Shown piece by piece: positions 10,448 through 64,000 of a stretch of DNA of 64,000 bases. The DNA is from Vulcanimicrobiota bacterium (GTDB lineage Bacteria; Vulcanimicrobiota; Vulcanimicrobiia; Vulcanimicrobiales; Vulcanimicrobiaceae). Both the position numbers and the translations under genes were made by a program. The DNA is taken from positions 1,777,226-1,841,225 of the forward strand of contig OY970335.1 in the NCBI GenBank assembly GCA_963717425.1. The letters run 5' to 3'. Each line of letters starts with the position of its first letter. Positions within the stretch are counted from its first letter, which is position 1. The notes beneath the pieces are model-generated. The model ran no database searches. It had not been told where the DNA came from and was given only the letters and a program-made list of their open reading frames with translations.

Positions 10448-10455
10448 GACACTCC

Positions 10456-34286: not shown

Positions 34287-34732
34287 GACTGCAGCGCTCC
34301 GAGATGGAGCGCGTGCAGGGTCGCATCGACTGTCTCCCACGGAAGGTGAAAGCCGGCCGCCTTCAGCGCTCGCTGTGCCGCGGTCACATCGGCCTTGGTG
34401 AAGCCATAGGGCCAGCGGCTCGGGTCCGAGTTGCGCATCGGCCAATTCGGGTGAGCCGTGCCCTCGTACTCATTGATGAAGACCATCGACCGATAGCCCG
34501 AGGGTTTAGTAGCGCGGATAATCTCCTTGGCACGCTTGGGGATGTTCGGGAATCCGAAGCGCGCGCAGCGGTCGCACTCCAGACCCTCTTGCTCGACCAC
34601 GACCGCGCGCTCTTTCTCGATCCTTGTGCGACAGCGGAGAACGCACCATTCACAGTACAGGCGTCCGCGAACGTGATAGAGCGTCACGGGGAGCCGATAG
34701 GTGGGTTTTCGGGCCCGCATCTCAGAGTCCAA
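34283..34732 (-). CDS. Hypothetical Cys-rich protein.
   Basis: ORF coupled to both neighbours. Contains CEWCVLRC...CDRC, a possible zinc finger. No family recognised. The start is 34732 or 34720. Confidence 0.5.
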   Translation of the reverse strand: MDSEMRARKPTYRLPVTLYHVRGRLYCEWCVLRCRTRIEKERAVVVEQEGLECDRCARFGFPNIPKRAKEIIRATKPSGYRSMVFINEYEGTAHPNWPMRNSDPSRWPYGFTKADVTAAQRALKAAGFHLPWETVDATLHALHLGALQS

Positions 34733-43677: not shown

Positions 43678-44633
43678 TATGAACCTCCCGATTTGGCGAT
43701 CGGCTTTAGCGCCGGCAACTCATCGAGGGCGCTGAGCAGCTTCATCGCGATTATCCTAGCTATTCGTGCCGATACGCCGTCGTAGCAAGCGTAGCTCCTA
43801 TCGCCGAAAGCCTCACGATGGACCCCAAGAAAGCGTGCGCCACAGAAATGCAAAACGCGCTCAGCGAGAATTGGTATTGGCACACGAGCGTCGACGGCGA
43901 GTCGGCCGGCACCGTAACGTAGGAATCGCAATCCGGTCCGGCCGGCTGCGTACGCAAGAGCCAACTCCAGCTCAATGCGGCGTGCGCCTCGGTAGTCCAC
44001 ATAATAGTATTCGGCTGCAGAAAACTGTCTTCTTACGCGCAGCACCTGGAAATTAAGTTCAGAGTCGGCCCGGTCCGCCGCAGGGTCAAATGTTAATGCA
44101 ATCGGGTCCAAGAAATGGACATCGCCGTCACCTATAGCATCCGTCAAGCCGATCAATGGTCTTGAGTAAATGATCGAACCGAGCTGGGGCAGAGCGGAAA
44201 GGAGCGCCCAACCGGCGTCTAGCGAAGAGCGCTCGATTCGAAAGTATTCCGGCATTTGCTCAAGAGACGCTATGTCAGCGCCTTCCCCAGCCAGAATCTC
44301 CGATCGTGTGTACGAAATATTTCTTGTGACGATTGCGGCGTTGGCCGCGATTACAAAACCGTTCCGACCAAGTAAGACTGAGCGACTATCGTCGATTAGA
44401 CCGACGCCCAACAGCCGTCCTGGAACGACACGAATGATGGTCAAGGGCGGTACGCTCCACGAGCGGTTCCCGAGCCAGTCGAACTCTACGAGGCCCCTGG
44501 CGGCCAACGCGCGTGCCGCAAAATATTCATGGAGATTCAGGCCCGTAATGTCCTCAACTGCCCGTTTGAAAGTATGCCAGCTGCCGGCGCCCGTTCCTGC
44601 GAGAAACGACAGAAGCGCATCGCCATTCAGCAT
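43677..44633 (-). CDS. Hypothetical protein, middle gene of the helicase operon (318 aa).
   Basis: ATG 44633 overlaps the upstream TAA by 1 nt (TAATG), and its TAG overlaps the helicase GTG (TAGTG). No family or catalytic motif recognised. Confidence 0.65.
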
Positions 44634-46510: not shown

Positions 46511-46969
46511 TACGATGCAGCGGGCCGGGCGCGTCTCATAGCCATGCTGAACGAGCCCACGTAGGAACGGGGACTATAAGGAGTGACTCGGATCGTGTTC
46601 GCCACATCCGAGCAGTTTGAAATCGATCAGCCGCCAAGCGCCAGTTATCTTATAACCTCAAAATCCGGACGCCTTCATCCGGTCGGTTGGCGCCGTCTCG
46701 ATGTGATGGGGGGCCGGCATACAATCCGACCCCAAGTGGTCTCCCGCCTAGGTAATTTGCGCTTATGGTCGCACGCTCGGGTCTTGACGCAGGGACTACA
46801 GTGCAGTTCCTCGCAGCAGCGCTCCGTTACCCAGGGACAACCCGTCGGGATGCTAGAACCGAATCAAAGCAAGCTGGCTTTCGCTAGGCGACCGGCTCCT
46901 TTCCTTCAGTCCGTTTCGTTTTGAAAAGGGGAACGATGCTACCGTGCATTCGTAGTAGGTTGAAATCCG

Positions 46970-49045: not shown

Positions 49046-49431
49046 GGCGTTCCTCGTCCGAACGCATGCGTCGAGTTGGCCGACGCGATACTGACTGCGA
49101 GTTGCGCCTTCGGTCTCGTTTGCATGCGATTGGATTTCGGTATCGAGTTGACTATTGCGTCGAAGGTTTGCGCACGAAACCTGATATCGCATTCGTCCGG
49201 GCAAGGGTCGCTATCTTCATCGACGGTTGCTACTGGCACGGATGTCCGGAGCATGGGACAATCTCTAAGACAAACGTCGGATTTTGGCGAGCGAAGATCG
49301 AGGGCAATCGAGAGCGGGATCGGCGCTTGACGAAGGACCTGACTCGGGCAGGCTGGCGAGTCGTGCGGTTGTGGTCACACGAATCTCTTGGCACCATGCT
49401 GGAACGAATTCGCGACGCATTGACGCGTTAG
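49042..49431 (+). CDS. vsr: Very-short-patch repair endonuclease.
   Basis: RMRRVGRRDTDCELRLRSRLHAIGFRYRV...KPDIAF...VAIFIDGCYWHGCPEHG...FWRAKIEGNRERDRR...GWRVVRLWSHE is collinear with E. coli Vsr as I remember it. Confidence 0.9.
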   Translation: MRRSSSERMRRVGRRDTDCELRLRSRLHAIGFRYRVDYCVEGLRTKPDIAFVRARVAIFIDGCYWHGCPEHGTISKTNVGFWRAKIEGNRERDRRLTKDLTRAGWRVVRLWSHESLGTMLERIRDALTR

Positions 49432-50576
49432 AATGCCATCACCTCCTCGTGGTGAAGCAAGTCTTCTAAGAACTGCGGGGGATAATGAAGATTGCTCCTC
49501 TCAAGACGCCCACGGAAGCCACGCGTCGCGCGCTCCGACAGCGGTGGCGGCTCTTGCGTCAGGAATCGCATGATCGGCGTCATTTCTAGGAGTACTGGAA
49601 AGGCACTGACCTCTATCGAGTAACGCTCTCCGCTGCGCCCCCAGGCTGCGAGCGGCCACGGCCCCGATTTCGGGAACCTCCTGCCGCGCAAATCGCGTTT
49701 GGTTTCGGGCACCCGACCAAGCCTCTTACCGATCCAGGAGGCAACTGGGACGCTGACGGCATTCCCGATCATCTTCCAGCGTTTGCGCTCAAACCTGGGA
49801 ATATCGCTCCCGATATCCGTCCAACCGATCGGGAAGCCTTGCAACGCCTCGGCATCCGCGATCTGCGGCATGACAATGGACCGTCGACGCCTCACCCAGA
49901 TCGCCGGGGGTGATGGAATGTGAATCCCGGAGCCGCTCTTCAGTGGGGGTACGGAATCATCAGCCCAACCTAGCCCGGCATTACCCTCGGTCCAATAGAA
50001 GCCGTGCGCCTGAACGTCATCGTGTCTAGGTGCATGTCCAACATCCTGGTCGAGTAGAATGCTTGGCGCAGAGTCGTCAAGCGATGCAACAAGAAGCCAA
50101 CGTTTCCGACGCTGCGGCAATCCGAATGCGGAAGTATCGACGATGCGATACGACCACGTGTATCTCATTGCCTCAAGCAAACGTGTGACATACGCAAGCG
50201 CTTTCCCGCGCTCAAGGTGAACGATGTTTTTGACGTTTTCCAAAACGATAAACGTGGGAAGGCGCTTCCTCGGGGTCTTAGCGATGAGCGCGAACATCCG
50301 CCGCAGGAGATCACGGCTGCCGTGCAAGCCGCTCGTCGGACCCACCTGACTGAAAGTCGAACAAGGAAAACCCGCGAGAATTGCATCTGACCGAGGTAGC
50401 TGTGTAATATCGAAAATATCCCCCGCAATGTCGCTCGTGAACCGATGCCGAAGGACCGATCGGCATGCATCATCGATCTCGTTAAGAAAAACCGCGTGAT
50501 GCCCGGCATTCTGAAATCCGAGTTCCAAGCCGCCGATTCCGGAAAAGAGACCTACGACTTGCAATCTATCCTCCAT
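49428..50576 (-). CDS. dcm: DNA (cytosine-5)-methyltransferase.
   Basis: Start at ATG 50576 (MEDRLQVVGLFSGIGGLELGF, motif I). GFPCSTFS (motif IV), VLENVKN (VI), QRRKRWLLVA (VIII), GNAVSVPV (X). The 131 codons upstream in the ORF are Arg/Ser/Pro-rich and probably not translated. The stop overlaps the vsr stop convergently (TTAG). Confidence 0.93.
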   Translation of the reverse strand: MEDRLQVVGLFSGIGGLELGFQNAGHHAVFLNEIDDACRSVLRHRFTSDIAGDIFDITQLPRSDAILAGFPCSTFSQVGPTSGLHGSRDLLRRMFALIAKTPRKRLPTFIVLENVKNIVHLERGKALAYVTRLLEAMRYTWSYRIVDTSAFGLPQRRKRWLLVASLDDSAPSILLDQDVGHAPRHDDVQAHGFYWTEGNAGLGWADDSVPPLKSGSGIHIPSPPAIWVRRRRSIVMPQIADAEALQGFPIGWTDIGSDIPRFERKRWKMIGNAVSVPVASWIGKRLGRVPETKRDLRGRRFPKSGPWPLAAWGRSGERYSIEVSAFPVLLEMTPIMRFLTQEPPPLSERATRGFRGRLERSNLHYPPQFLEDLLHHEEVMAF

Positions 50577-50636
50577 TGAGCATCTGATCGAGGCGGTTCC
50601 ATCCACTGCGATCGCTGGAAAGGCGATAAGTACTCC

Positions 50637-50680
50637 ATTAGAAGCGTTTTCCCTCGAGATTAGAAGCGTTTTCCCTCGAG
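50637..50680. repeat. Perfect 22-bp tandem duplication ATTAGAAGCGTTTTCCCTCGAG x2 in the dcm/UDG-like divergent intergenic region.
   Basis: Read directly: 50637-50658 and 50659-50680 are identical. The repeat lies about 60 nt upstream of the dcm start. Confidence 0.9.
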
Positions 50681-50968
50681 CGGCCTTGGCTGGGCCGCGT
50701 CGGGCTTCGCACGGGACTGAAATACGCCGAAGAAAGACAGCCCGGATCAGCCACGAATAGGGGCGCCGCGATGCTTCGTGCGAGTGACTGGGACTCTGTT
50801 GATCCGCGAAGCCTGCCGTCGTTCGGGACGCGCGCTCTCCAGGCGCCTTGCCCGTAGGCGTCCGCTCGCGGCCTCCCTGCGGGCCAGTCTCATACGATCT
50901 CGTGCTGGGGCTTCGGGGTACGGTCGGCGAAATGCGGGCCGCTTGTGAACACTGCAAACGGGAGCCCA

Positions 50969-51706
50969 ATGACGGCAGTCCGAGAAGTCTTCGATTCGAT
51001 AGCCTACTGCAAGAACGTTGCGCTGTGCCATCACGGGGGCGAATCGCACCCCTGCGCCACGATCGTTCGGTCGCAGCACGTTTCAGACGCCAATTTTCAA
51101 CTGCCAGAGCCGTGGCGCGGCCGGATCGACAAGGCGCGCATCCTATTCATAGGCTCCAACCCTTCGATCGGCGACGATCGGTACGCGCTTCAGTCTTCCC
51201 CTGAAACGCAGGTCTGGGAGTCACAGCATCTCGCATTCGGCGGCGGAAGCCGGCCATACGTCATAGACGGCATCAGGACGACTACGGCCACTGGGTCGCC
51301 CGACCACGTCGTACGCTATTGGTCGTCGATTCGGGCCAGGGCGCGCGAGTTGATCCCATGCGCGGTCCCGGGCGAGGACTACGCGATTTCTGAAGTCGTG
51401 CACTGCAAGTCCAAGGGCGAAGAGGGAGTCGCCGAAGCAGCCCAGACCTGCTATGCCATGCACATGTCGGCCGTGTTTTCGGTCGCGGCCGCGAAGGTCA
51501 TAATCGTGCTTGGCAAGTTCGCCAAGGAACAGCTGCTGGGTGCCGTGCCCGCTCCTTCGATTCCATCGCAGCTGGAGCTGGGAGGTTGGAAGCGGACCGT
51601 GCTCTTCTTGCCGCATCCCAACGCCAGAGGCGTACGGAAAGCCCTTGCAGCGCACTATGCCGGTGCGGACTTAGAGGCGGTCAAAGAGCTAATCGCGGCC
51701 CCTTGA
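50969..51706 (+). CDS. Uracil-DNA glycosylase superfamily protein (MUG/TDG- or family-4-like).
   Basis: ATG 50969 is preceded by GGGAG. ILFIGSNPSIGDD resembles the GINPG/GMNPG catalytic motif. FLPHPNARG resembles the HPS/NPSG C-terminal motif. An N-terminal Cys cluster is present (CKNVALCHHGGESHPC). Confidence 0.55.
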   Translation: MTAVREVFDSIAYCKNVALCHHGGESHPCATIVRSQHVSDANFQLPEPWRGRIDKARILFIGSNPSIGDDRYALQSSPETQVWESQHLAFGGGSRPYVIDGIRTTTATGSPDHVVRYWSSIRARARELIPCAVPGEDYAISEVVHCKSKGEEGVAEAAQTCYAMHMSAVFSVAAAKVIIVLGKFAKEQLLGAVPAPSIPSQLELGGWKRTVLFLPHPNARGVRKALAAHYAGADLEAVKELIAAP

Positions 51707-51720
51707 GAACACCCAGGGAG

Positions 51721-52473
51721 ATGGACGACGAGACATTCCTCGCATTCGTTCGCAATAGCGCCGCCAAATGCGATCTCGAGACGCTTGAAAAAGCCGTTAA
51801 GGCGCTAAGCGATAGCATCGCCAGTCGGCGCTGGGGGAGGCCGCCAGGTCTCGAAGTTGGGTCTCACGTTGCGGCCGTCGATTTCGATGGATGCTTTGGA
51901 TGGTACGGCACAGTCATTCGGTTGACGGGCCAGGGTTGCATCATCGAGCCGCCGGCTGCAAAATATACCCAGCGAATCTCGTTCAAGAGGTTCATAGTGC
52001 GCATCGTGGACGAGTTTGAATGGAATCGCGCATGTATGGCCGCAGAAGAGCGAGCGCACGACTTCGCCGAAAAAAAGGTTCGAGAAGATGCCGAATTGGA
52101 GGCGGACCGGGAGGACGCAATTAAAGATCGCGCCCCTGCAGCTCAGCGCCCCAAAAATATGCTGGCGATGAATGGTGCGGTAAGTGTGTACCGAGGAGCG
52201 TTCGTTCACGCTTATCGTCCCGACTGCGATGACCACGAGTACGGCGTGGTCGTCTACATGACGCCGAAGGCCCTGGACCTGAGTAGCCCGGAATCCGCGT
52301 GGATCCATCGAGTCGTCGCGGTGAAACATGAAATCGACATCCTGAGCGAGGGAGAGTGGCAAGTGGTGGATGCCGAGTTACGACGGAGGCGAGCGGAATA
52401 CGAAGCAGCGGAAAAGGCCGGGAAAACATCCGATCTGATCGACTACAGTAATGTCAGGATCCCCCTGCGTTGA
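51721..52473 (+). CDS. Hypothetical protein with two similar small beta-rich segments, each followed by a charged helix.
   Basis: ATG 51721 is preceded by CAGGGAG. The internal repeat is seen by eye (...GWYGTVIRL...IVRIVDEFEWN vs ...YGVVVYM...AVKHEIDILSEGEWQ). No family recognised. Confidence 0.5.
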   Translation: MDDETFLAFVRNSAAKCDLETLEKAVKALSDSIASRRWGRPPGLEVGSHVAAVDFDGCFGWYGTVIRLTGQGCIIEPPAAKYTQRISFKRFIVRIVDEFEWNRACMAAEERAHDFAEKKVREDAELEADREDAIKDRAPAAQRPKNMLAMNGAVSVYRGAFVHAYRPDCDDHEYGVVVYMTPKALDLSSPESAWIHRVVAVKHEIDILSEGEWQVVDAELRRRRAEYEAAEKAGKTSDLIDYSNVRIPLR

Positions 52474-52609
52474 GAGGTGAAGCTGGAGCGCTGCGCTAGT
52501 GCCGGACTAGCGTCGCTGACGGGGCACTCGGAGTCCACATCGCAAGCAATTCGAGCAGGCAGACGGCCGCATCCCTCGAACGCAGCCTTGTGCGCGTGCG
52601 ATCCGCGGC

Positions 52610-53857
52610 TTGCCGTTCCTGGACAACCCGAGCCGCCACGGTCTTGATCGAAATGCAGTCACACTACCTGTGATACCCCAAGGCCAGGACCCACGCGGAA
52701 ACGCTCACACTCCAGCATCGTCCGAGCCCGCGTACCTCTTAGAAACTCTTCGTATCATTGAAGCAGCCACCAATCACGATGCGGAGAAGCTGTCGATCTT
52801 CGTCGCGGCCCTCGTAAATAAGCTCCGCGAAAACGGCTTCGCTCACGCTGGGAAGCTTATCGAAAGAGCGTTTAACCGGTCGCGCGAGAGGCAGCTCTCC
52901 CCACAGTCATTGGGGCGCACAGTCGAAGGAGGGCTGCGGATTCCAGTTGACCCGGAGACTCACGTACCGCTAGCGGACGTCGAAACGCTTTCGGTAGACG
53001 ACTTGGGCTACGAAGCCGATCCGTTGACGTCGGCTAATACGTCTTCGTTCCTGTCCTTCGCGCGTAATCGGGGCAAGCTTCTCGCGAGTGGAATCTTCGT
53101 GCCGACGAATCTTCTGCTGCACGGGCCGCCTGGCTCCGGCAAAACGATTACTGCGAGATACGTCGCCGCCGCTCTCGGCCTGCCTATTATAACCGCCAGG
53201 ATGGATGCCGTTGTCTCCAGCTACTTGGGAAACACTGCAAAGAACATCCGCTACATTTTTGATGCAGCATCGTCGCAAAATGTCGTGCTGTTCCTGGATG
53301 AGCTTGATGCGATCGCGAAGGCCCGAGATGATGAGCACGAGCTTGGCGAACTAAAGCGCGTGGTAATAGCGCTGCTCCAAAACATCGACTCCGTGAACGG
53401 GAAGCTGATCCTGATTGCGGCGACTAATCACGAGCATCTTCTTGATCCGGCGATTTGGCGGAGGTTCCCGCACCGCGTCGGATTTCAGTCTTCCACGCTT
53501 GACTTTAGAAGGGCGCTGTTCGCGAGGTTTTCGACCGGGTTGCCGCCGGTCTGGTATGATGCCCTCGCACATGCCTCGCGTGGCCTAAGCGCCGGGGATA
53601 TACGCGAGATAACACAACGCGAGCAGATCAGCGCCATCATTGAAGATCGACTTATCCTTCCGGCCGCATTGCTGCGGAGCACGCTTGGCGTCGCTTCAAA
53701 GGGACCGGGCGGTTCGTACATGCCGATCGCGGATGTCGCCCGACGCGCAGCTTCCCGTGATAGTAAGTATTTTACTATTACTAGGCTGGCGAATCTACTT
53801 GGGGTTAGCCGCAGCAGGATCACAAGTTACCTTCGTAGGGCACGGCGTGCCAGATAA
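52610..53857 (+). CDS. AAA+ ATPase (classic AAA clade), IetA-like.
   Basis: LLLHGPPGSGKTITARYVA (Walker A), VVLFLDELDAI (Walker B), LIAATNHEHLLDPAIWRRF (sensor/Arg finger region). An S8 protease gene lies immediately downstream. The TTG start is uncertain. Confidence 0.85.
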   Translation: MPFLDNPSRHGLDRNAVTLPVIPQGQDPRGNAHTPASSEPAYLLETLRIIEAATNHDAEKLSIFVAALVNKLRENGFAHAGKLIERAFNRSRERQLSPQSLGRTVEGGLRIPVDPETHVPLADVETLSVDDLGYEADPLTSANTSSFLSFARNRGKLLASGIFVPTNLLLHGPPGSGKTITARYVAAALGLPIITARMDAVVSSYLGNTAKNIRYIFDAASSQNVVLFLDELDAIAKARDDEHELGELKRVVIALLQNIDSVNGKLILIAATNHEHLLDPAIWRRFPHRVGFQSSTLDFRRALFARFSTGLPPVWYDALAHASRGLSAGDIREITQREQISAIIEDRLILPAALLRSTLGVASKGPGGSYMPIADVARRAASRDSKYFTITRLANLLGVSRSRITSYLRRARRAR

Positions 53858-53903
53858 CTTTCAGCTCCCCATCCAAAGGGTGCTCAACCGCGACGGAGAC
53901 CGT

Positions 53904-56108
53904 ATGGCACGGCACGCTGGCGGAGGAGCAGATACTGTTTTCGAGGATGACGGCGAAGGTGGAGGACAAGGGGGTGTGCTTGCGGTCCTACCTCAGATCG
54001 AGCGAGAGGTAAACGCGCTTTCAGCAAGGTTCCCCTCAGTCCCGGCCGTTCTTCGCGTTCGCCTTAAGGACAATGCGCTCGCAAAGACACACCGGCCGAC
54101 CTCCTTATTCGACGAAGAAGCGCCCATAATAGGCGGCGAGGGGCCCGGAGAGTTGCTTGTTGCGGCCATGCCGCACTCACTCGCGGTTGTACGGCGCCGC
54201 GTCTCCAACCCCACCTCGCAGCGGATGCGCGCTAATATCTCAACAATTAGAGAAATGAACCTTGTCGAGCCGCGATCGAAGGTGGCTGAACTCCCGCATG
54301 AACCGAATGCTGATGGGCGGTATCAGCTTAAGGTAAAGCTATTCGATTATCACGATCAAGGCGTAAACGATCAATCACTGCGGAGGTTCATGACGTATCT
54401 CCATGAGCTTAACGTTGACGATCCAACAGTCCACCAGTATGCGCCAGATCTAAGAGTATTCGGGCTTGAGGTCGCCGATTTAGGGTTGGCTGAGCGGATC
54501 GCAGAGTTTCCGACCGTGAGGGCGGCGACGGCCTTTCCTCAGTTTGGCCACGATATTGACTTTGCGGCAGTGTCACTGGGGGCGCTCCAACCGGAGCGTC
54601 TTCCTCCGCCGGCTGCCGGCGAGCAGTATCCAGTGGTTGGGATGATTGACGGCGGAACCGACCCCGCGAACGCGCCGCTTCGCCCGTGGATTACCAATCG
54701 GTATGAGCCCTCCCCAGGTGCTGACAGGAATTTCGCTCATGGCACCTTCGTGGCTGGACTGATCGCAAGCCCAAAATCCCTTAACGGGCTTCTTGAGGCA
54801 TTCCCACCCACAAAGTGCCGGATCGTCGACGTGATCGCGATGCCGACCACCGGCCTTAGGGAACCGGAGCTCCTTGCAACGATTGATGCGGCTCTCGTAC
54901 AATTTCCAGACGTCCGAATTTGGAACATTTCCCTTGCGCGCAACGTCCCCGCCCATAAGGATGAGTTCAGCGATGTAGCGCGGGCGCTCGACGCTCGGCA
55001 GGATCGTCACAATGCCCTTTTTGTTATCGCCGCTGGAAACTACCGGACGCCGCCGCTCCGATCGTGGCCACCTCAGCCCTTAGCAGATCGAGATCGTGTA
55101 GCAGCACCCGGTGACTCAGCTCGCGGCCTCACGGTCGGGTCCGTTGCACACCTCGATAACGGTATATCGGCCGTGAGGACCGGTGAACCATCACCATTCT
55201 CTCGCCGTGGACCCGGCCCGTCGTTTATCCCGAAACCCGAACTTCATCACCACGGTGGGAACTGTTCGGCAAACGGCGACTTTCGCCAAATTGGCGTTCA
55301 ATCTGTCAACGAGCAAGGCTTGCTTGCCGAAGACGTGGGGACGAGCTTCGCAACGCCGATCATCTCATCTATTGTCGCGAACGTCGATCGCGCGCTCGGT
55401 GGCGGAGCTTCGAGGAACCTCCTCAAAGCGCTAATGGTGCATAGTGCGCTACTAAATAGCGGTCCCGACGTATCACCAAGTGACTTAAACTACTACGGCT
55501 TCGGAAAACCAACTGACGTTGTTGACGCGCTCGCGTGCGATCCGTGGTCATTTACGTTCCTGTTTGAGCCTAAGCTAGTCGCGGGCTATTACTACAATAT
55601 TTGGCCGTTCCCGCTTCCGGCGTGCTTACATCGAAACAATCGGCTATATGGCGAGGTTATAATGACATTGGTTTACGATCCGCCATTAGACAAAAGCTAT
55701 GGCTTTGAATATTGCCGGAGCAACGTCGAGGTTTCATTTGGAACGTACCTAGAGGACGCGGAAGGGAAGCGCCACCAGGCCGGCAAGGTGCCTGCGGACC
55801 CGGCGAGTCCAGACCTGGCTTTCGAAAAGTCTCGAATCGAGCACGGTTTCAAATGGTCGCCGACTAAGGCGTATAGGAAGCGCTTTCGTGGGACTCGTGG
55901 CGACGTTTGGAGACTCATGGTAGAAATCTTACACAGAAGTAACTTCGCGCCGACTGACCCGCAGCGCGCTGCCATTATATTGACGCTACGCGATCCGGAC
56001 AAGAATCGACCAGTTTATACTGACACGATGGACGCGATTCGATTAGTGGGCCGCCCGATCAGCGCACTCCGCGTACGAGACCAAGCGCGCTATCGGCGCC
56101 GAGCCTAG
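53904..56108 (+). CDS. S8 (subtilisin-like) serine peptidase, IetS-like.
   Basis: ATG 53904 is preceded by GGAGAC. Catalytic contexts are VVGMIDGGTD (Asp), HGTFVAGLIA (His), VIAAGNY (oxyanion Asn) and GTSFATPIISS (Ser). The N-terminal region of about 230 aa is of unknown fold. Confidence 0.85.
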   Translation: MARHAGGGADTVFEDDGEGGGQGGVLAVLPQIEREVNALSARFPSVPAVLRVRLKDNALAKTHRPTSLFDEEAPIIGGEGPGELLVAAMPHSLAVVRRRVSNPTSQRMRANISTIREMNLVEPRSKVAELPHEPNADGRYQLKVKLFDYHDQGVNDQSLRRFMTYLHELNVDDPTVHQYAPDLRVFGLEVADLGLAERIAEFPTVRAATAFPQFGHDIDFAAVSLGALQPERLPPPAAGEQYPVVGMIDGGTDPANAPLRPWITNRYEPSPGADRNFAHGTFVAGLIASPKSLNGLLEAFPPTKCRIVDVIAMPTTGLREPELLATIDAALVQFPDVRIWNISLARNVPAHKDEFSDVARALDARQDRHNALFVIAAGNYRTPPLRSWPPQPLADRDRVAAPGDSARGLTVGSVAHLDNGISAVRTGEPSPFSRRGPGPSFIPKPELHHHGGNCSANGDFRQIGVQSVNEQGLLAEDVGTSFATPIISSIVANVDRALGGGASRNLLKALMVHSALLNSGPDVSPSDLNYYGFGKPTDVVDALACDPWSFTFLFEPKLVAGYYYNIWPFPLPACLHRNNRLYGEVIMTLVYDPPLDKSYGFEYCRSNVEVSFGTYLEDAEGKRHQAGKVPADPASPDLAFEKSRIEHGFKWSPTKAYRKRFRGTRGDVWRLMVEILHRSNFAPTDPQRAAIILTLRDPDKNRPVYTDTMDAIRLVGRPISALRVRDQARYRRRA

Positions 56109-56381
56109 CGGCTAGCCGCCGCGCCCCTGCCTCGCTGTACCCTAGGCCAAGAATTACTTGCGGTTGGACCTCGAAATTGTGCGCTCGACCTCGCCGCCGG
56201 ATAGGGGAATGTCGAGCGGACTGGCCGGAACGCCCGGGCGGGCGATGCAACTCTAGCGCGGATCCACTGCGTGCGCACAAGGTTCGCAGCAATCAGAATG
56301 CGATATTTACGCATCGAGGAGGGCGGAGTGCGACCCGGTCTGTAAACGCTCGGTTGACTCGTGGTTTCTTAGGAGGTTTCC

Positions 56382-57308
56382 GTGACCGTATCGAGGCGCG
56401 TAAAGGAAGCAGATGCTGAGGCTTTCGCGGAGGTTTTGTCTAAGACAGCGTTGCCAGGAGGTACGGCAAGATTTGGCCATTTCGCGCTGCGAGGAAAGAG
56501 TGGCGTTAGAGACCGGATCAACTGGTCGAACCGTACGAACGGCAACGACCTCATCCTCGGCAAGCAGGAGTACACGTTCCCTTGCGGCGCGGCAGACGTT
56601 CAACTCTCGCTGCAACTCTATTTCAACGTGCGCCGCCACTATCGCCTTTTCGCATATACGAGGGCTGGCGATGTAGAAGGCATGACGTTCTCGGTCAACC
56701 TTACGACGAAAAGAGAATCGCGAAGCGTCATATTCCTGGAGCAGCCGATCAGTTTCAAGGAACGCTATCCGGATGCCCGAGATGGTGGCATCGAGCGCCG
56801 CCGGCAAAAGCAGATTCTGCTCTGCGATGTGCTTAGGCGCATCGGCATGGACGTCGACGATGATGCGAGGCTGGTTCTCGGCGTCTTCGATCCGCAGGGC
56901 CGAATGCTGCTCGACGCCACACCCGAGAGCTTTCTGAATAACTTCGTCGCGGCAGCGCTGTTGAAGGGCCACTTTCAGGGCAATAAGGGATATGAGTTGG
57001 ACGTCATTCCTTCTATGCGGGCCGCATACGATCTCTTCGCGCCAGCGAAAATGAATCCAAAATGGAAATCGCTGAGGGGGCGTCGCCCTGCTGGGCGCCC
57101 TCCAATTCCGTTAGCGGTACGTTACAAGGTCCTCGCGAGGGATCGGAGCGTATGCCGAAGGTGCGGACGGGGAGTGGCGGGAGGTCTCACTCTGCACATT
57201 GACCACAAGACCCCGGTTTCGCTCGGCGGCGACAGTGGCCTGAAGAACCTCTGGACGCTTTGCAGCGAGTGCAACCTCGGCAAGGGCAACCGCATCATCG
57301 ACCGCTAA
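56382..57308 (+). CDS. HNH endonuclease with an N-terminal domain of about 230 aa of unknown function.
   Basis: GTG 56382 is preceded by AGGAGG at 6-nt spacing. The C-terminus is CRRCGR...LHIDHKTPVSLGGDSGLKNLWTLCSECNLGKGNR (HNH with a CxxC...CxxC zinc site). Confidence 0.85.
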   Translation: MTVSRRVKEADAEAFAEVLSKTALPGGTARFGHFALRGKSGVRDRINWSNRTNGNDLILGKQEYTFPCGAADVQLSLQLYFNVRRHYRLFAYTRAGDVEGMTFSVNLTTKRESRSVIFLEQPISFKERYPDARDGGIERRRQKQILLCDVLRRIGMDVDDDARLVLGVFDPQGRMLLDATPESFLNNFVAAALLKGHFQGNKGYELDVIPSMRAAYDLFAPAKMNPKWKSLRGRRPAGRPPIPLAVRYKVLARDRSVCRRCGRGVAGGLTLHIDHKTPVSLGGDSGLKNLWTLCSECNLGKGNRIIDR

Positions 57309-58261
57309 ATTCGCGTTATCGCCTTGAGGGCCGCGCATCGACAAAGTGCGTCCTCGATGAAATCCTCCGGCGGCTGCTCAGACTCGCTCGACTCGTTAAG
57401 CTCCAAGCCGCCGCGCAATTCATCCTCGGCCACCCCGCCGGAGGCGGGAGCGTCACGCGCCTCGCACCGGCAACGTCTTAATGCGGCGTAGCAAAATTTC
57501 CACGCAACCGACGACAGTGATGCGTCGGGTCGCGTTCGGCTACCGATTCGGCGATGCGCACGCTTCCGGCGCTCAACGCTGCGCTTCGCGCCACCGTTCG
57601 GCGGCAGGGCTGATCACGATTTTCCACGCGGCGCGCGTCGCGAGAGCGGCTAAGGAGCGCAGGCCTCGGATACTGACCAGCCCAGCTTTTGGTATCGAGA
57701 AGTACCATTATCGTTAGCTAAGGGGCGAACCGTGGCTCATCAGGGCGTCCATCGCCGAAACGGCTCCCGCTATCGCAATGGCTATGGGCTCATTGCGGAC
57801 TCATCCGAGCCGAAGGGTCTCTAGCGCGTTTGGCGACGCAGTCGGTTGTAGGGTATAGCGGCAGCCAACGTTTCAATCGAGGCCCTATCAGAGAGGCAAA
57901 CGAGGGTGACGACATGGCTGCGCGGGTTTCTCTGCAAGTTAGGCGCTTATTACACCCCGTGCGCGATGCCATGCCGCCGGCGATAGTTTAGCCGATTCCC
58001 GAATCCAATCTAGCCCGTTATAGTGCTTCAACAAGGTTGTGAATTGTGGCCTTGGGTTCGATCGTCCGAGTCAAAACGCGACCCACACTAGAGCCGGCTC
58101 GGGCACCGACGGTTAGGAAACGTGCAGCGCCTTTCTTATCAAACATTTTATTCGTTTATACAGGCATTCAGCTCCAGAGGGGGCTCAATTCAAACGCTTG
58201 CTCCAGATATTTGCGCCGACGCTAATGAGGAAGAACCAAGGTGAGTCACGTCAGCACTGGC

Positions 58262-58546
58262 TCACGCATCGATCTCTGCGGCTATCCCTTCAGCGACACG
58301 CCGAAGAGCATTTCCCCATTGCCCCCTCGGCAATCCGCTGACTTCAAAATAGTGTCTGGCGATGTCAGCGAAAAAGATGCCAAGCGCCGCTGGATCGGGC
58401 CACGGGTTCTCAGTTGTGGCAAAGCCAATGTCCTCATTTGGGAGCATCCAAGCGCACAGTATCTCCACAGCAGCCGGATTCTTAATAACATCATCAGGGA
58501 TCGTAAGCCTACGCATGTACTTTTTTATACCTCTAGGGCGGGACAC
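58262..58546 (-). CDS. Small hypothetical protein, possible (orphan) immunity protein, DUF5076-like.
   Basis: 94 aa. LTIPDDVIKNPAAVEILCAWM...WPDPAALGIFFADIARH resembles DUF5076-type sequences from memory. It lies downstream of the RHS toxin/LRR pair in the low-G+C segment. Confidence 0.35.
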   Translation of the reverse strand: MSRPRGIKKYMRRLTIPDDVIKNPAAVEILCAWMLPNEDIGFATTENPWPDPAALGIFFADIARHYFEVSGLPRGQWGNALRRVAEGIAAEIDA

Positions 58547-58651
58547 TAGTGTTTGCGCCTATTTGCGCGTTAAGCATGCAGATGCGCTGAGCCGCTAGCA
58601 AGGTCATGTGTGATCGGTGGCCGCCTGCAGGCCCGAAGGCTAGAAGTTAGC

Positions 58652-59536
58652 TTATTGAGCAAAACGGTGCGAATCCCTCTCTAACTTGGACCACAACTTG
58701 TTATAATTATAATTGTAATGCTTCCTATTCTGAAATGCAAAATTCTCAAGCTTCATTTCATTTACGATAGCAGTATTGCCATCGAGAACGTTTGTGGAGT
58801 CGGTAAAATACAACTCCTTCAGGTTATGGTCAGTCCGTAGGGGATTTAACGACGCAATATTTCCCACGTTGTCGAGGTGTAAGCACTCAAGCTTCGGTAA
58901 GTTGGTAATGACGTCGACGCTTTTCAACTTTCTACAGGTTTGAATCCTAAGGTCTCGCAGCGATTTGAGTGAACTAATGGCAGTAAAATCGTCTAGCTTA
59001 CGGAGGTGGGAGAGTGTGAGGTTTTTTATGCCATTGCATCGCTCGAGCCCAGACAAAGTGCGAAGCGGCCCTCCGATGAGCTCAAGCTCGCGCAAATAGG
59101 GGGCCGTACCGATGACTTGTAGATTCTGATCGCCCCATGAGAAAACTCGCAGCGTGGTTAGCAGGGGTGCTCGCCAAAGATTAACGAGCTTGGGTCCCCA
59201 TGGGACACTCAGCTCCTCGATCAGCGGCCACGACGCAGGATCAGCATCGAAAAAACTATCAGATTGAACCGTCAAGACCCGTAGGTTATGGAGGTTCGCA
59301 ATCCCATGAATATCAAATGCGGTCCGGTTTATTATGTGGAGTCGCTCTAGATTTCGAAAGCCTTGCAGTAGGCTGATGTCACCGGTCCTACGTCGCCACA
59401 GAGTCCAGATCTCTGTTACACAAGATCCGGCGGGTCCGATCTCTCGTAATAGTTCTGGCGTTAAAGGATCTGCTAGCAGCAGCGATATGCTATCATGCGC
59501 CGATTCAAGCCGAAAGCCAGACGTCGGAAGTTGCAC
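58652..59536 (-). CDS. Leucine-rich-repeat protein; candidate cognate immunity protein of the RHS toxin.
   Basis: 294 aa with repeated LxxLxLxxCxxL units (LRELELIGGPLRTLSGLERCNGIKNLTLSHLRKLDDF...LRDLRIQTCRKLKSV...LECLHLDN). The GTG start is 8 nt after the RHS stop. The gene is markedly A+T-richer than its surroundings. Confidence 0.8.
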   Translation of the reverse strand: MQLPTSGFRLESAHDSISLLLADPLTPELLREIGPAGSCVTEIWTLWRRRTGDISLLQGFRNLERLHIINRTAFDIHGIANLHNLRVLTVQSDSFFDADPASWPLIEELSVPWGPKLVNLWRAPLLTTLRVFSWGDQNLQVIGTAPYLRELELIGGPLRTLSGLERCNGIKNLTLSHLRKLDDFTAISSLKSLRDLRIQTCRKLKSVDVITNLPKLECLHLDNVGNIASLNPLRTDHNLKELYFTDSTNVLDGNTAIVNEMKLENFAFQNRKHYNYNYNKLWSKLERDSHRFAQ

Positions 59537-59544
59537 GTAGTTTT

Positions 59545-62500
59545 CTACGGAGGGCTTTGCTGCGTACTTTGCTGGGGCCGTGCTCCTTGAGCGTTGATCT
59601 TATTGGCTACGTTGGGATTACCCACGCCGCCCGCCTCATCTATTGCATTTTGCTCCGCGGTTTTTAGATTGCCAGAAACCGCCCGGGTCTGGACTGATCC
59701 AAAGTTCTCGCTTGTCAACTTTCCGCTCCTGATATGCTGGGCCATTCTTTGTCCGATGTTTATCGATCTACCGACATACGTCTTTCCTTGCGTGATGAAT
59801 CTGTATATTCCCCGAGCGACGCCACCCGCTAGCGCTCTGCCAGCAGCGGCGGCGGACGCCGCGGAGCGAGCGGTTGCGGCGGCAAAGCCTCTCGCGCTGC
59901 TCGCGAGCGCAGCGTCACCCACTGCTTCGGCGGCCTCACCAACAGCCAGAGCACCGCCTTCGACTACGACGGCGCCTACTGCCGCCTCTCCAACGCACGC
60001 GTCTTCGATACAATAACCGCTCGGATCGTTGTACTCGACTGGATTATTATCGTTCCACATGAAGGACTTTTGAGACATCGGGTCATGCACATCACCGGCA
60101 TATGCGTCAGGGGTCGTCCAAGATCCCGACGTGTTGTCATACGAGCGCGCGCCTTGGATTGTGTCGAAGCCGTCAGTCAATCCATCGGTCCGTGGCATGC
60201 CGAGTACGCCACTAGATCCCATTGCCCACCCTAAATCTGAACCATTGGTACCATCGTACGCTGAGCCAAACCATCTGATCGACTTTGGTTCATTCGGCGT
60301 CGTGAGAGGAAAGCACGGCGAGTGCCAAATGCTCACCTCATTCCGGAAGAAGGTTTGATTCCAACTGTCGCCGAGACCGGCAAAGGTACTTGCGTTAGCG
60401 TTATGGCAGCCGATGACCACGCCGCCGGGGCCACGATCGTAGAAAGTTAAGCCGGCATATCCCGTATCTTGCGGCAGGATGTCACCTTGGGCTCCGATCT
60501 TGATGTCGTCGAGTGCTGCAGTCGAGCCGTCGCTGGCAAATAGCAACTGATTTCCGTCCCAGTGAAGGACCTCGTTGTGCAGTTTTCCAGAGCTGTCAAA
60601 AGTGCCGATCATAATCGGATGGCCGTTGGGACCCCAGCTTATTCCCTGCTCGACCGGGGGGCTCACATTTACTCCCGAAAACTCCGTGTTTAGTAGATGA
60701 TTTTCGGCGTCGTACGTTCGGCCCACTGTTGTGGCCGCAAACGTTCCGGTGCTAAACTGCTTCCACGGCGCGGATTGACCATTCATTTGGCCTGCATTAC
60801 TGTAATTCCAGGTCGTAGGGATAGAGTTGCTGCCAAAAGGGACCTGTTGGGTCTGCACGCCCATAAAGGCGTCCCAGTAGTACGAAGTTGCGCTGCTAGG
60901 CTGTAGTCGAATCATCACGCCGTTAGCTAAGAATCCACCTCCGCCAAGATAGTTCTGAGAACTTGGCGATGACACCAGCTCCCCACGCAAGCTGTAGCCC
61001 CACGTGGGTGGCCCCTGAGAGGAGCCTTGAATGGTGGTGCTGAGTAACTCGCCCTCCGCGCTGTATGAGAAGTTTAACAGGCTGGTGGCCGGAGAACTAT
61101 ATGAACTCTCTTGTCCATAGCCGTCGTAGGTTATGGTTGTCGGAGTCGCGTTTTTAGCGATGCCAGTCTCAGCGCGGTTGTTCATTCGTCCCGTATTGTC
61201 GTATGTGTAGACGATATTTGTTATTCCCGCATTCTTGATTTGGCTGCCAAGGGTTCCATCATTGATGGTTTCCGTTCCGATAAGCCCATCCTGACGGTAA
61301 GAATAGCTGAAGAGCGCAGCTTGCGTTACGGCCGCCGAAGAGACGTCGACGCTTTCCAGCGTGCCGTCGGGATAATAGTTATGCGTAACGACGGCGGATG
61401 ACATCCTGTCGCTATTTGTATCACCGCTGGGATCAGTCGAGGTCCGGAGCCGCCCATCGAGGTTGTACGTGTATAGCTGGGGGTTGCTGTAAGCTCCCGA
61501 CGTAATTTGTGCCGGCTGACCGTCTGGGTCATACAGATAGTCTCGTTCTGGAGAAGATCCGCCGCTGGACTCGAAGGTCTTCTCTTTCCCATCCTCGCGA
61601 TAATCGAACTTCTGGCATTGGCCTAAAGCGTTACAATCGGTACCAAGCAGTCCTGCAACATTACCGCTTCCGAGCGGAGTGATATCCCAAGTCAGTGCCT
61701 CTGTACTCAGTGTCTCCGTATTCGATTGGTTAACTAAGGAATATTTCGCAACGGCCCGATCGACATCATCGTATGCGGTTGCCTTGATGTTTTGATAGCT
61801 AGTATTAGGTACCGTTTGCGGGTTAGCATTGTACTGTATAGAGGGATTCGCTGATCCCAAAAGCTCTTGCGTCGCGTAGAGGTTACCGTAGGCTTGAAAC
61901 TGCGCGCCGTGAAAAGATTTTTGGCTGCCGTCCAAATCGTACAGGTAGCGGGTTACCCATGGATTCTGATATGCATCGCTGTCGGCTTGCGGGAGTTTGA
62001 CCTCGACGAGCCGATCGAGCCCGTCGTAGTACTTGCACGTCGTTCCGGCGCCAATCGAGGCGCTCGGCGTGCACCATGACGGCGTAGACTTTCCCGCCTT
62101 GCAGCCTCCGGGCACGCAGTTGTGGTGGCGCGCCTCGGTCGCGACATCACCGTCGGGATCGTAGCCGTACGCGACAGCGTACTGCGGTGGTGTTGCGCCC
62201 GACTTCAACTGGCTATCGGTCGGACACGATGGTCCCCCGTCGAGGTGATACTGCCAGCCGGTCTCACTGTAGAAAACGCTCCCATCGAGATTGTAGCAAA
62301 TATTAGATGATATATGCAGATCGGGATCGGTGCGCCTGGTTACACGGTTCATTCCATCGGTAGTGTACTGCAACACCCATTGGGTATTGCTCGTGGGGTA
62401 GCTGCTGTATGTAGACAAGTTGCCGGCGGTCGTATAGGCAAACTTTTGGTGCGGGATTCGATTGTTGTCCTGACCGATCGCAGTGCCTGTGACATCGGTG

Positions 62501-64000
62501 GGAAGACCCATTCCACAGTTCGATCCGGGATAGTTGATGGTTCGAGCGTAGCCGCCGAATGTGTCCATTTCGATTAGGCAGCCGTATGGTTCCGCAGCGT
62601 CGTTTGGATTAAAGATAAACTTGGCGTGGTTTGTGCCGTACGTTTGGCACAAATTGTCCGCCGGTACCTGCCAGCCGTTGTTGTTACCGTTGTTGGCCGG
62701 ATCGCAGTAAAACTTCACATTGTTGTAGCTGTCGTAATCATAGAAGCTCGTCGGGTTAATCGACCCCTGAGGGAATATGGTCATCTTAGGAAGGACGACC
62801 TCCACGGTGTTGCCGTTGACGTCGTAGCCCATCTTCGTCACATAGCCGCGCGCGTCGGTTGTACTTGTAAGGTCGTTGTTCGCGTCCCAGGCCTGGGATG
62901 TTCCGAGCCATGTGCTTCCCCCACCCGTAGTGAGAACGTACGTCTGAATCGCACGATTGCTTCCGTCGTAACACCACTGGGTATTATGCTGGAAGGCATC
63001 CACCATTTCGGCCATTGATCCAGTGCAATTGCTCCATGGGATTTGATTGTTGAAAAAGTCTGTATCGTCCCATTGTACGAAGCCGGTATTCTCGCCGCTC
63101 TGTATAGCCGAGGGCGATAAGACATTGTCCTGAGGAGTGGGGTTAAGCACGCCGCGCGTATACCAGTCGGAAAGCTGATGACTGGAATAGTCGAAGTCGA
63201 CGCAAGCTCCATCCGTGGGGTGTCCGCTCGTGTCGATGTTAGAAATTGTGGCGCGCGGACCGCACACCTCCATGAGTCCTGGCGGTCCAATATCGTAGGT
63301 CTCAGGTAGGTTGCCTCTGGCGATAGGCGCTCCGTCGAGAAAACTTGTCGGCATGGTTTCGTTCGCGAGCACCGGGGTGTTCCCCGGCTTATCGACATCG
63401 TCAACCTCACCATTACTGGAATAATGATAGTTGACCGTTTCGTTATCTGGCAACGTGATCGACATCAGCTCGGTAATAGGGGGACTAGAACCTGCAATCT
63501 GTCCGAATGTCATCGTTAGCTGAGCGCCGTCAGGCTGGTGTGTCGCGACGATCGTTGCAAGATTTTCCGGGTTACTAGCGTCTGGGCTCCAACTATATGC
63601 TAGGTTAATATAAAAGTTCGTATTGCGCCCATAAATTGCCAGAAGCCGCCCGTAGTATCCCGCTTGATTGCTCGTGCAGTTAGAGTAGGGCGCGTCAAAC
63701 ATGTAGCTCGTTCCGGATTTCTTGGTCCATTGCAACTGGCAGGCAATGCCGTTGCCGCCGAGCTGGGTCGTCGCAAGAATTTCATACACACCGGGGGTCA
63801 GCGACGTGCACGTAGCCACGGTGTTGATCGTGCAACTATAGTCGTCACGGGCGCCATCACCGGTATAAACGCTTACGGTCCCCGTGTTCTGGCCGGTTGA
63901 CGACCAACCAAGGTGAACATCCAAGTTGTTCGTCCAGCGGTTGCCAAATACGGATGGCGTCGACCCGTCAGTATTAATCGCGTCGTGCCCTGACTGGGAA
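59545..64000 (-). CDS. RHS/YD-repeat polymorphic toxin with a C-terminal GIY-YIG nuclease domain. The N-terminus lies outside the window.
   Basis: Many YD repeats (YDVNGN, YGYDPDGD, YLYDLDG, YTYNLDGR, YLYDPDG, YTYDNTGR). The core ends at NDPSGYC and is followed by an Ala/Gly-rich linker. The last 88 aa (nt 59548-59811) are GIYRFITQGKTYVGRSINIGQRMAQH...AEQNAIDE (GIY...YVG...R..H...E). I translated the frame upstream of the listed TTG (63924) and it stays open to nt 64000. Confidence 0.9.
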   Translation of the reverse strand, partial: SQSGHDAINTDGSTPSVFGNRWTNNLDVHLGWSSTGQNTGTVSVYTGDGARDDYSCTINTVATCTSLTPGVYEILATTQLGGNGIACQLQWTKKSGTSYMFDAPYSNCTSNQAGYYGRLLAIYGRNTNFYINLAYSWSPDASNPENLATIVATHQPDGAQLTMTFGQIAGSSPPITELMSITLPDNETVNYHYSSNGEVDDVDKPGNTPVLANETMPTSFLDGAPIARGNLPETYDIGPPGLMEVCGPRATISNIDTSGHPTDGACVDFDYSSHQLSDWYTRGVLNPTPQDNVLSPSAIQSGENTGFVQWDDTDFFNNQIPWSNCTGSMAEMVDAFQHNTQWCYDGSNRAIQTYVLTTGGGSTWLGTSQAWDANNDLTSTTDARGYVTKMGYDVNGNTVEVVLPKMTIFPQGSINPTSFYDYDSYNNVKFYCDPANNGNNNGWQVPADNLCQTYGTNHAKFIFNPNDAAEPYGCLIEMDTFGGYARTINYPGSNCGMGLPTDVTGTAIGQDNNRIPHQKFAYTTAGNLSTYSSYPTSNTQWVLQYTTDGMNRVTRRTDPDLHISSNICYNLDGSVFYSETGWQYHLDGGPSCPTDSQLKSGATPPQYAVAYGYDPDGDVATEARHHNCVPGGCKAGKSTPSWCTPSASIGAGTTCKYYDGLDRLVEVKLPQADSDAYQNPWVTRYLYDLDGSQKSFHGAQFQAYGNLYATQELLGSANPSIQYNANPQTVPNTSYQNIKATAYDDVDRAVAKYSLVNQSNTETLSTEALTWDITPLGSGNVAGLLGTDCNALGQCQKFDYREDGKEKTFESSGGSSPERDYLYDPDGQPAQITSGAYSNPQLYTYNLDGRLRTSTDPSGDTNSDRMSSAVVTHNYYPDGTLESVDVSSAAVTQAALFSYSYRQDGLIGTETINDGTLGSQIKNAGITNIVYTYDNTGRMNNRAETGIAKNATPTTITYDGYGQESSYSSPATSLLNFSYSAEGELLSTTIQGSSQGPPTWGYSLRGELVSSPSSQNYLGGGGFLANGVMIRLQPSSATSYYWDAFMGVQTQQVPFGSNSIPTTWNYSNAGQMNGQSAPWKQFSTGTFAATTVGRTYDAENHLLNTEFSGVNVSPPVEQGISWGPNGHPIMIGTFDSSGKLHNEVLHWDGNQLLFASDGSTAALDDIKIGAQGDILPQDTGYAGLTFYDRGPGGVVIGCHNANASTFAGLGDSWNQTFFRNEVSIWHSPCFPLTTPNEPKSIRWFGSAYDGTNGSDLGWAMGSSGVLGMPRTDGLTDGFDTIQGARSYDNTSGSWTTPDAYAGDVHDPMSQKSFMWNDNNPVEYNDPSGYCIEDACVGEAAVGAVVVEGGALAVGEAAEAVGDAALASSARGFAAATARSAASAAAAGRALAGGVARGIYRFITQGKTYVGRSINIGQRMAQHIRSGKLTSENFGSVQTRAVSGNLKTAEQNAIDEAGGVGNPNVANKINAQGARPQQSTQQSPP

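Follow-up and report, generated by a model that had tools for sequence, protein, structure and literature searches.

What does the C-terminal tip of the large RHS protein at the end of this stretch do, and which of the two genes behind it would shield the producer? The stretch, referred to here as the window, is the whole 64,000 nucleotides (nt) analysed from contig OY970335.1 (assembly GCA_963717425.1), and at issue is a polymorphic RHS toxin locus of Candidatus Cybelea (Vulcanimicrobiota/Eremiobacterota), of which the window contains the 3' end. From comparative data and predicted structures we consider it likely, with good confidence, that this locus encodes an RHS-delivered DNase of the GIY-YIG type together with a leucine-rich-repeat (LRR) immunity protein. 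The elements on which this reading leans are the following; lengths are in amino acids (aa).

59545..>64000, minus strand: RHS/YD-repeat open reading frame (ORF), continuing past the window edge; 1484 of its codons lie inside, stop-free to 63999, stop TAG at 59545-59547
60013..64000, minus strand: in-window part of the RHS/YD-repeat core (open ORF; Pfam RHS_repeat, 37.7 bits); the gene extends past the window
60013..60042, minus strand: core/tip boundary motif PVEYNDPSGY, of the PxxxxDPxG[LY] type, read from the sequence; presumed autoproteolytic release site
59827..60012, minus strand: Ala/Gly/Val-rich pre-toxin linker of about 62-66 aa, G+C fraction (GC) 0.69
59545..59826, minus strand: putative GIY-YIG (URI-fold) nuclease toxin domain plus stop codon (homologues, invariant residues, profile, AlphaFold2 (AF2) and Foldseek)
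58652..59536, minus strand: 294-aa LRR protein, candidate cognate immunity protein, with a GTG start at 59536, 8 nt past the toxin stop (Pfam LRR, AF2)
58262..58516, minus strand: DUF5076 gene, candidate second or extra immunity protein (Pfam PF16826), 84 aa from the ATG at 58516 or 94 aa from the GTG at 58546

The RHS protein and its C-terminal domain

The preliminary description had reported a YD-repeat protein of more than 1480 aa, open to the window edge, with a core ending at NDPSGYC and followed by an Ala/Gly-rich linker, and all of this was borne out. A database search supplied full-length versions carrying DUF6531 at the N-terminus: P0164, of 1588 aa, and MGA8475006.1, of 1619 aa. The longer one, P0284 in our set, is named 'MAG: DUF6531 domain-containing protein [Candidatus Cybelea sp.]', comes from Vulcanimicrobiota and clusters with P0164 at ≥90% identity. 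Precomputed Pfam domains are RHS_repeat and DUF6531 for P0164, and PF05593, PF25023 and PF20148 for the full-length protein and its homologues. On the window ORF a single RHS_repeat passes alone, at the score listed above against a cutoff of 22, and the NCBIfam model Rhs_assc_core (TIGR03696) gave 22.3 bits just before the boundary, under its cutoff of 32.5. The C-terminal end of the core reads ...NNPVEYNDPSGY, directly followed by C, and the codon of its last Y finishes at nt 60013; in one-letter sequence this end is ...SQKSFMWNDNNPVEYNDPSGY. Judging from established knowledge of RHS proteins, the shell would hold a small C-terminal toxin, and self-cleavage at PVEYNDPSGY would set it free.

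The polymorphic character of the protein emerged from its relatives. The database search returned 128 homologues of the core, mostly unnamed or named 'YD repeat-containing protein', and most of them align over ~90% of the query, that is, as far as the boundary. The boundary motif, written as N..P....[DN]P[ST]G[Y/F/L], was located in 72 of the 128, and the sequences behind it make up 49 unrelated tip clusters, with the GIY tip present in P0164 alone. One core combined with many unrelated tips is the defining behaviour of polymorphic RHS toxins, the class to which the protein had been assigned beforehand. An orthologue, P0166, is 72% identical and carries another tip and another gene, of 226 aa, beginning 10 nt downstream; a paralogue, P0167, 67% identical to the RHS protein, lies on the same contig. 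At the P0166 locus (L014; contig_4713, ERZ25039460) the tip is followed by the 226-aa gene and then by a DUF6438 gene, and a 790-aa secretin gene lies divergently upstream.

Between core and tip, the linker consists of 51% A+G (66-aa count) and reaches a maximal Kyte-Doolittle hydrophobicity of 1.68 in a 19-residue window. The closest relative of the tip, P0014, has a comparable linker, and in other members of the tip family the pre-toxin region is variable and often Gly/Ala-rich.

The tip itself reads GIYRFITQGKTYVGRSINIGQRMAQHIRSGKL...TAEQNAIDEAGGVGNPNVANKIN... to the stop. From GIYRF to the stop it measures 88 aa and carries GIY, YVG, R-x3-H and a downstream E (in AEQ); motifs and length thus agree with what had been reported, with the correction that GIY and YVG are separated by eight residues (GIY-x8-YVG), not nine. 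Exhaustive phmmer searches recovered at least 249 cluster representatives of tip homologues at E≤1e-3. The 150 best matches lie at the very C-terminal end (median of 11 residues beyond the match), in carriers of up to 2745 aa, many of which have DPxGL boundaries or HINT modules upstream. A word-indexed protein search with the tip alone and a genome scan with an alignment of the tip subclade found no relatives, and a phmmer search of the PDB with the tip as a single sequence gave noise only.

Conservation was read from an alignment of 34 tips, numbered along the 95-aa tail. The residues G8, Y10, Y19, G21, R29, H33 and E60 are invariant in 34/34, and S23, G37, I64, G69, N77 and N80 are conserved in ≥90%; the window tip keeps every one of them. 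In the family profile R29 and H33 align with R27 and H31 of I-TevI. Pfam GIY-YIG (PF01541) is matched by 32 of the 34 members at E≤0.01, with a best E of 2.3e-7, and the family profile searched against the PDB found I-TevI (1mk0, E=1.5e-4), followed more weakly by UvrC, SLX1 and T4 endonuclease II. The AF2 model of the tip (predicted local distance difference test (pLDDT) 85.6, predicted template modelling score (pTM) 0.72) has a β-β-α-β-α arrangement with strands at 8-14 and 17-23, and the catalytic domain of I-TevI is its sole meaningful Foldseek match. Pfam, the profile search and the predicted structure agree in this way, and they support the earlier reading of the tip as a GIY-YIG nuclease domain. 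The toxin would be a minimal nuclease of ~80 aa with the URI fold and all of its predicted catalytic residues intact, and its nuclease activity and toxicity are expected from sequence and model. Most likely it would nick or cleave DNA in the cytoplasm of a target bacterium.

The genes directly behind the tip

The LRR gene begins, as described before, 8 nt after the toxin stop. Its product matches Pfam LRR_EndoS at 33 bits, NCBIfam also gives LRR, and AF2 models it as a solenoid (pLDDT 87.1, pTM 0.84), with InlA, InlF and the Roco LRR as top Foldseek matches (E around 1e-7) and SDS22 similar as well. The internalin matches are at 16-20% identity, and inspection of the LRR sequence revealed no leader or signal peptide. 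Database searches with the LRR protein gave 13 homologues, leading to three loci (L005, L006 and L007) with the same tip directly upstream; in L005 (GCA_007680005.1) the LRR protein is 26% and the tip 31% identical to those of the window. A genome scan added adjacent tip and LRR genes in metagenome-assembled genomes (MAGs) of Rhizobium, Pedobacter, Planctomycetes and Chthonomonadaceae, such that the loci found through the LRR protein with the tip directly upstream are seven, from several phyla (L005-L007, L009, L011-L013). Orphan LRR copies occur in L003, L004 (flanked by insertion sequences), L008 and L010 (split). The LRR homologue is split into two ORFs at 606-1433 of L009, from a Rhizobium MAG, and at 6007-6853 of L010, from an Eremiobacteraeota MAG; these splits may reflect frameshifting, pseudogenes or faulty assembly. 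Two other samples, L001 and L002, yielded assembled cassettes identical to that of the window.

We then asked what follows the tip when the search is seeded with the tip alignment alone. This gave at least 80 metagenomic loci, and the gene directly downstream was distributed as listed, in proportions that are rough because two peptide patterns defined the sample.

LRR homologue directly downstream of the tip: 56/80 tip-seeded loci
RraB-like protein (PF06877) of ~120 aa directly downstream of the tip: 17/80 tip-seeded loci
DUF5076 (PF16826, 90-106 bits) directly downstream of the tip: 3/80 tip-seeded loci (L051, L074, L087)
Downstream DNA too short to tell: 4/80 tip-seeded loci

Every tip-seeded locus long enough to show the next gene therefore has an LRR, RraB-like or DUF5076 gene next to the tip. 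The three occupy the same position, 0-40 nt past the tip stop, and the type of partner groups by clade on the tip tree. These partners match LRR families, RraB (PF06877) or DUF5076 (PF16826), and none of them matches an Imm family. Pairwise distances among tips and among LRR proteins co-vary strongly (Mantel r=0.79, 48 pairs; 0 of 2000 permutations as high). Given this co-variation and the adjacency in 56/80 loci, an LRR protein is what most members of this toxin family are paired with, and no oddity; the preliminary description, which did not recognise the pairing as standard, has to be revised on this point, all the more as a 2026 preprint predicts a like pair (see below). Its proposal that the LRR protein is the immunity factor gained comparative support from the 56 tip-seeded and the seven other loci and from the co-varying distances.

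Two further features of the census concern how the module moves. Tip and LRR genes move together as a two-gene cassette, which occurs behind many delivery scaffolds that are unrelated to one another. In two loci (L058, 1818-5121; L059, 743-4046) tip+LRR modules stand in tandem, two per locus, the pattern produced when an orphan toxin-tip/immunity cassette lies behind a main gene. Among 48 tip-adjacent LRR genes with room downstream, 31 are followed by neither DUF5076 nor RraB, and LRR alone is therefore the commonest arrangement. RraB-like genes stand directly after the tip in L038, L050, L052, L054, L063, L064, L066-L069, L072, L075-L078, L081 and L084, and after the LRR gene in five loci (L033, L044, L055, L057, L060). 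Their products score up to 58 bits with PF06877 and have a C-terminal YDGWGT; the literature searched holds no link between the RraB fold and toxin immunity.

The small ORF at 58262-58546, which had been proposed to be an orphan immunity gene, is a genuine DUF5076 gene: the window protein scores 37.2 bits with PF16826 against a cutoff of 25, and its relatives in L051, L074 and L087 reach the 90-106 bits given above. The homologues and the gene call in L001 suggest that its true start is the ATG at 58516. It is separated from the LRR gene by 135 nt, and a DUF5076 gene follows the LRR gene in 11 tip-LRR loci, the window and L006 included. A cultured bacterium offers the simpler arrangement: on the megaplasmid of Ralstonia sp. 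RRA.1 (L095; NZ_CP146092.1, 584047-598322) this GIY-YIG tip terminates an RHS-like protein of >2429 aa, a DUF5076 gene encoding 88 aa begins 4 nt past it, and LRR is absent; the region is without annotation in the PLSDB table. In R. pseudosolanacearum, DUF5076 stands within an array of small (poly-immunity) genes behind a different RHS-like toxin. By position, then, DUF5076 is an alternative direct partner in other clades of the same toxin family, which gives the orphan-immunity proposal a sharper form, and for this reason DUF5076 in the window would most likely either guard additionally against related toxins or add a second immunity layer. DUF5076 is not mentioned in the literature searched.

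Taken together, the comparative evidence is strong that tip and LRR protein form a toxin-immunity cassette. The LRR protein would be co-transcribed with the toxin and remain in the cytoplasm as a solenoid that protects the producer as cognate immunity. A eukaryotic LRR horseshoe, ribonuclease inhibitor, is known as a tight inhibitor of the small secreted nuclease RNase A, and the LRR protein would probably bind the tip and clamp the nuclease in a similar manner. The analogy is functional, an LRR protein against a small nuclease, and implies no homology; the repeats of the window protein are of ~22 aa and internalin-like, unlike the 28/29-aa class of ribonuclease inhibitor, and its target would have a DNase-type fold.

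Competing explanations and described systems

Several observations weigh against an RHS-delivered GIY-YIG DNase held in check by the LRR protein. The window tip alone scores 22.1 bits with PF01541, just below the cutoff of 22.6 (E=1.9e-4), and the Foldseek match of its model is modest (I-TevI 1ln0; probability 1.00, TM 0.54, E=0.019). By eye, neither a PAAR domain nor a signal peptide or hydrophobic leader was seen at the N-terminus of P0164/P0284, and no secretion genes are visible. The partner counts come from loci selected via the two peptide patterns. Finally, there is a second conserved downstream gene, DUF5076, and either or both proteins could neutralise the toxin. The last point opens two alternatives. 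The LRR and DUF5076 proteins might bind the same toxin on different surfaces, the three genes being one functional unit. The order tip, LRR, DUF5076 in 11 loci is in line with this, as are the intact third-position copies of DUF5076 and the subclade that the window and L006 DUF5076 form on their own, paralleling the window/L006 subclade of tip and LRR; LRR-DUF distances in the trio set correlate at r=0.85, and there is a precedent in Tdi5a and Tdi5b, each of which neutralises Tde5 independently (PMC13392607). Against this, both DUF5076 and RraB are missing after the 31 of 48 LRR genes already mentioned; each protein is seemingly sufficient alone, because DUF5076 alone directly follows other tip clades; the correlation disappears without the deep window/L006 split (tail-DUF r=0.14, n=10, with low power); and the spacer of 135 nt between LRR and DUF5076 compares with 8 nt between toxin and LRR. 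We regard such joint action as unlikely. The opposite assignment, with DUF5076 as the true inhibitor and the LRR protein as an accessory chaperone, adaptor or regulator, draws on the facts that immunity proteins are usually of a small α+β type and that, where LRR is absent, DUF5076 or an RraB-like gene stands directly behind the tip. It appears very improbable to us, as most tip-LRR loci lack a DUF5076 or RraB gene, and the LRR gene travels with the C-terminal tip across unrelated scaffolds and orphan tip cassettes and sits 0-40 nt past the stop, in the slot that RraB-like proteins or DUF5076 take in other clades. Adaptors follow N-terminal delivery domains and are typically encoded upstream. 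A role of the LRR protein as a delivery adaptor was rejected, given that it tracks the tip rather than the scaffold.

Two more readings would deny a toxin-immunity pair altogether. The LRR protein could be of the internalin/BspA type, serving at the surface or in host interaction, and stand beside the RHS gene by chance, without any relation to it, as its best structural and NCBIfam matches, internalins and LRR effectors of type III secretion systems, might suggest. However, those internalin matches reflect the generic LRR fold at 16-20% identity, neither the leader nor an anchor was seen on inspecting the sequence, and the adjacency is conserved and co-varies over more than 60 loci from several phyla; we hold this coincidence to be extremely unlikely, and an internalin-like surface protein was rejected for lack of a leader and for the conserved linkage to the tip. 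Alternatively, the tip could be a decayed, non-catalytic remnant of a GIY-YIG domain in an inactive system. Its sub-threshold Pfam score, its place in a divergent subclade and the split LRR homologues of L009 and L010 would fit; yet all family-invariant residues are kept, the toxin, LRR and DUF5076 ORFs are intact and identical cassettes come from the two other samples, and there seems very little chance that decay explains the locus. A broader proposal goes beyond an RHS-delivered DNase with LRR immunity: one GIY-YIG toxin family would be neutralised by three unrelated immunity folds exchanged between clades (an internalin-like LRR solenoid, the RraB fold and DUF5076), and in loci like that of the window LRR and DUF5076 would act together, as dual or as cognate plus cross-protective immunity. 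We offer this tentatively, as a real possibility that we would at present slightly doubt.

The kind of system and the pairing already have precedents, in view of Tox-URI1, Imm-LRR, published surveys and a recent preprint. Zhang et al. (2012; PMC3482391) described the URI/GIY-YIG tips of RHS toxins as Tox-URI1 and Tox-URI2, with Imm14, Imm26, Imm44 and Imm51 as the listed partners of Tox-URI1 and a published Tox-URI1 signature of Y, YxG, R, [RK]xxE and N; the same work catalogued Imm-LRR, listed only 'next to T5SS toxins' (type V secretion systems). As in Tox-URI1, the URI/GIY-YIG domain here is at the extreme C-terminus of RHS (and HINT) toxins with the candidate immunity gene directly downstream, and, compared by the published signature, the window tip fits through Y10, Y19-V-G21, R29, K57-T-A-E60 and N77/N80. 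In contrast to Tox-URI1, the main clade of this tip family has R-E-x-A-E instead of [RK]xxE, and the partners are LRR, RraB-like or DUF5076 proteins, with none of Imm14/26/44/51 matched; a Tox-URI1 model was not found in Pfam or NCBIfam. PAAR-RhsA-GIY-YIG proteins have been surveyed in Salmonella (PMC11669294), and a survey reported GIY-YIG tips in Dickeya. The present locus differs from both Tox-URI1 and the Salmonella proteins in having no visible context of PAAR or a type VI secretion system (T6SS) and in its Vulcanimicrobiota host.

The nearest precedent for the pairing is a July 2026 preprint on Stenotrophomonas (10.64898/2026.07.13.738213), in which AlphaFold3 (AF3) predicts that an LRR protein, '314', blocks 'C6 UvrC-like endonuclease' Rhs tips. 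Likened by description, this is the same pairing of an LRR protein with a UvrC-like (that is, GIY-YIG) Rhs tip, and Imm-LRR and '314' share with the window an LRR solenoid in a polymorphic-toxin or poly-immunity locus. LRR as the majority partner across a family and the RraB-like and DUF5076 alternatives are absent from both Zhang et al. (2012) and the preprint. The literature searched seems to contain no description of a large tip family paired mostly with LRR proteins, of alternative partners of the RraB-like and DUF5076 kinds or of the recurrent tip-LRR-DUF5076 trio, and an experimental validation of LRR immunity for a GIY-YIG toxin was not found there.

The remaining comparisons concern the enzyme and the two-gene arrangement. 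With I-TevI and the N-terminal domain of UvrC (PDB 1mk0, 1ln0, 1ycz) the tip shares its motifs and the predicted β-β-α-β-α core; it differs in having no DNA-binding or linker domain, in its size of ~80 aa, in its fusion to RHS and in its dedicated candidate protein inhibitor. The Tde5-Tdi5a/Tdi5b system (PMC13392607) likewise places two structurally unrelated candidate immunity genes behind a nuclease toxin, but Tde5 is a T6SS-delivered ββα-Me DNase whose two immunity proteins are both proven by experiment, whereas here dual action is one possibility.

The window thus presents a well-formed and conventional polymorphic toxin locus, from a phylum (Vulcanimicrobiota) that is uncultured and little studied. 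Together, an LRR protein of ~290 aa and a very small GIY-YIG nuclease would make up a widespread mobile toxin-immunity cassette, with sister clades that use RraB-like or DUF5076 partners; this offers a tractable system in which to follow how unrelated folds evolve to inhibit one enzyme, and the LRR protein would be a bacterial counterpart of ribonuclease inhibitor. DUF5076 gains a testable function. If the proposal of three immunity families is true, a function would be assigned to DUF5076 for the first time, and inhibition of a nuclease toxin would be a new role for the RraB fold.

Base composition and neighbouring genes

The GC values of the locus and of the genome backbone are as follows.

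RHS core: GC 0.541
Linker: GC 0.690
Tip: GC 0.528
LRR gene: GC 0.484
LRR 3' half: GC 0.445
DUF5076 gene: GC 0.541
Genome backbone, 1-28000: GC 0.633

Region by region, these values make the whole RHS locus, the core too, A+T-richer than the backbone. The tip and the downstream genes had been held to be clearly A+T-richer than the core; within the locus this applies to the LRR gene alone (0.484 vs 0.541), the tip (0.528) not being clearly so and the DUF5076 gene equalling the core. As an argument concerning the tip itself, the A+T-rich cassette is weak.

Shuffled sequence yields at least as many promoter and terminator matches as the DNA around the cassette. A promoter-like TTCAGA-17-TATAAT lies at 58706-58741 on the minus strand, in the A+T-rich 3' end of the LRR gene and upstream of DUF5076; shuffled sequence is as rich in such matches. 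Rfam gave nothing credible within 56-60.2 kb. Between the DUF5076 and HNH genes, ~950 nt (57309-58261) hold no convincing ORF and no Rfam or tRNA match, and this segment could be an island/cassette junction or decayed genes.

The window also encodes a TonB-dependent receptor, and the producing organism is therefore probably diderm. A tRNA-SeC gene at 28023-28116 (plus strand) is directly followed by a tyrosine integrase gene at 28227-29447 (minus strand); a second integrase gene lies at 34722-35696 (minus strand), and SelB is encoded close by at 9940-12303. From 0.633 in 1-28000, the G+C fraction falls through 0.57-0.60 and reaches 0.536 at the RHS locus. An integrated island, with the RHS cassette possibly inside it, is suggested by these features; a comparison against the 3' end of tRNA-SeC found no att-like repeat downstream in the window. 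A defence island, at 38113-57308 of the window, adjoins the RHS cassette and contains the following genes.

38113-43677, minus strand: DruE-like helicase (PADLOC DruE4, 1388 bits)
43677-46510, minus strand: DruL-like and DruF-like genes, weak matches
46970-49045, plus strand: HATPase_c_3 protein resembling a type II restriction endonuclease
49042-49431, plus strand: Vsr
49428-50969, minus strand: C5 methylase
50945-51706, plus strand: uracil-DNA glycosylase (UDG)-like gene
52610-53857, plus strand: IetA
53640-56108, plus strand: IetS
56382-57308, plus strand: HNH protein of 308 aa

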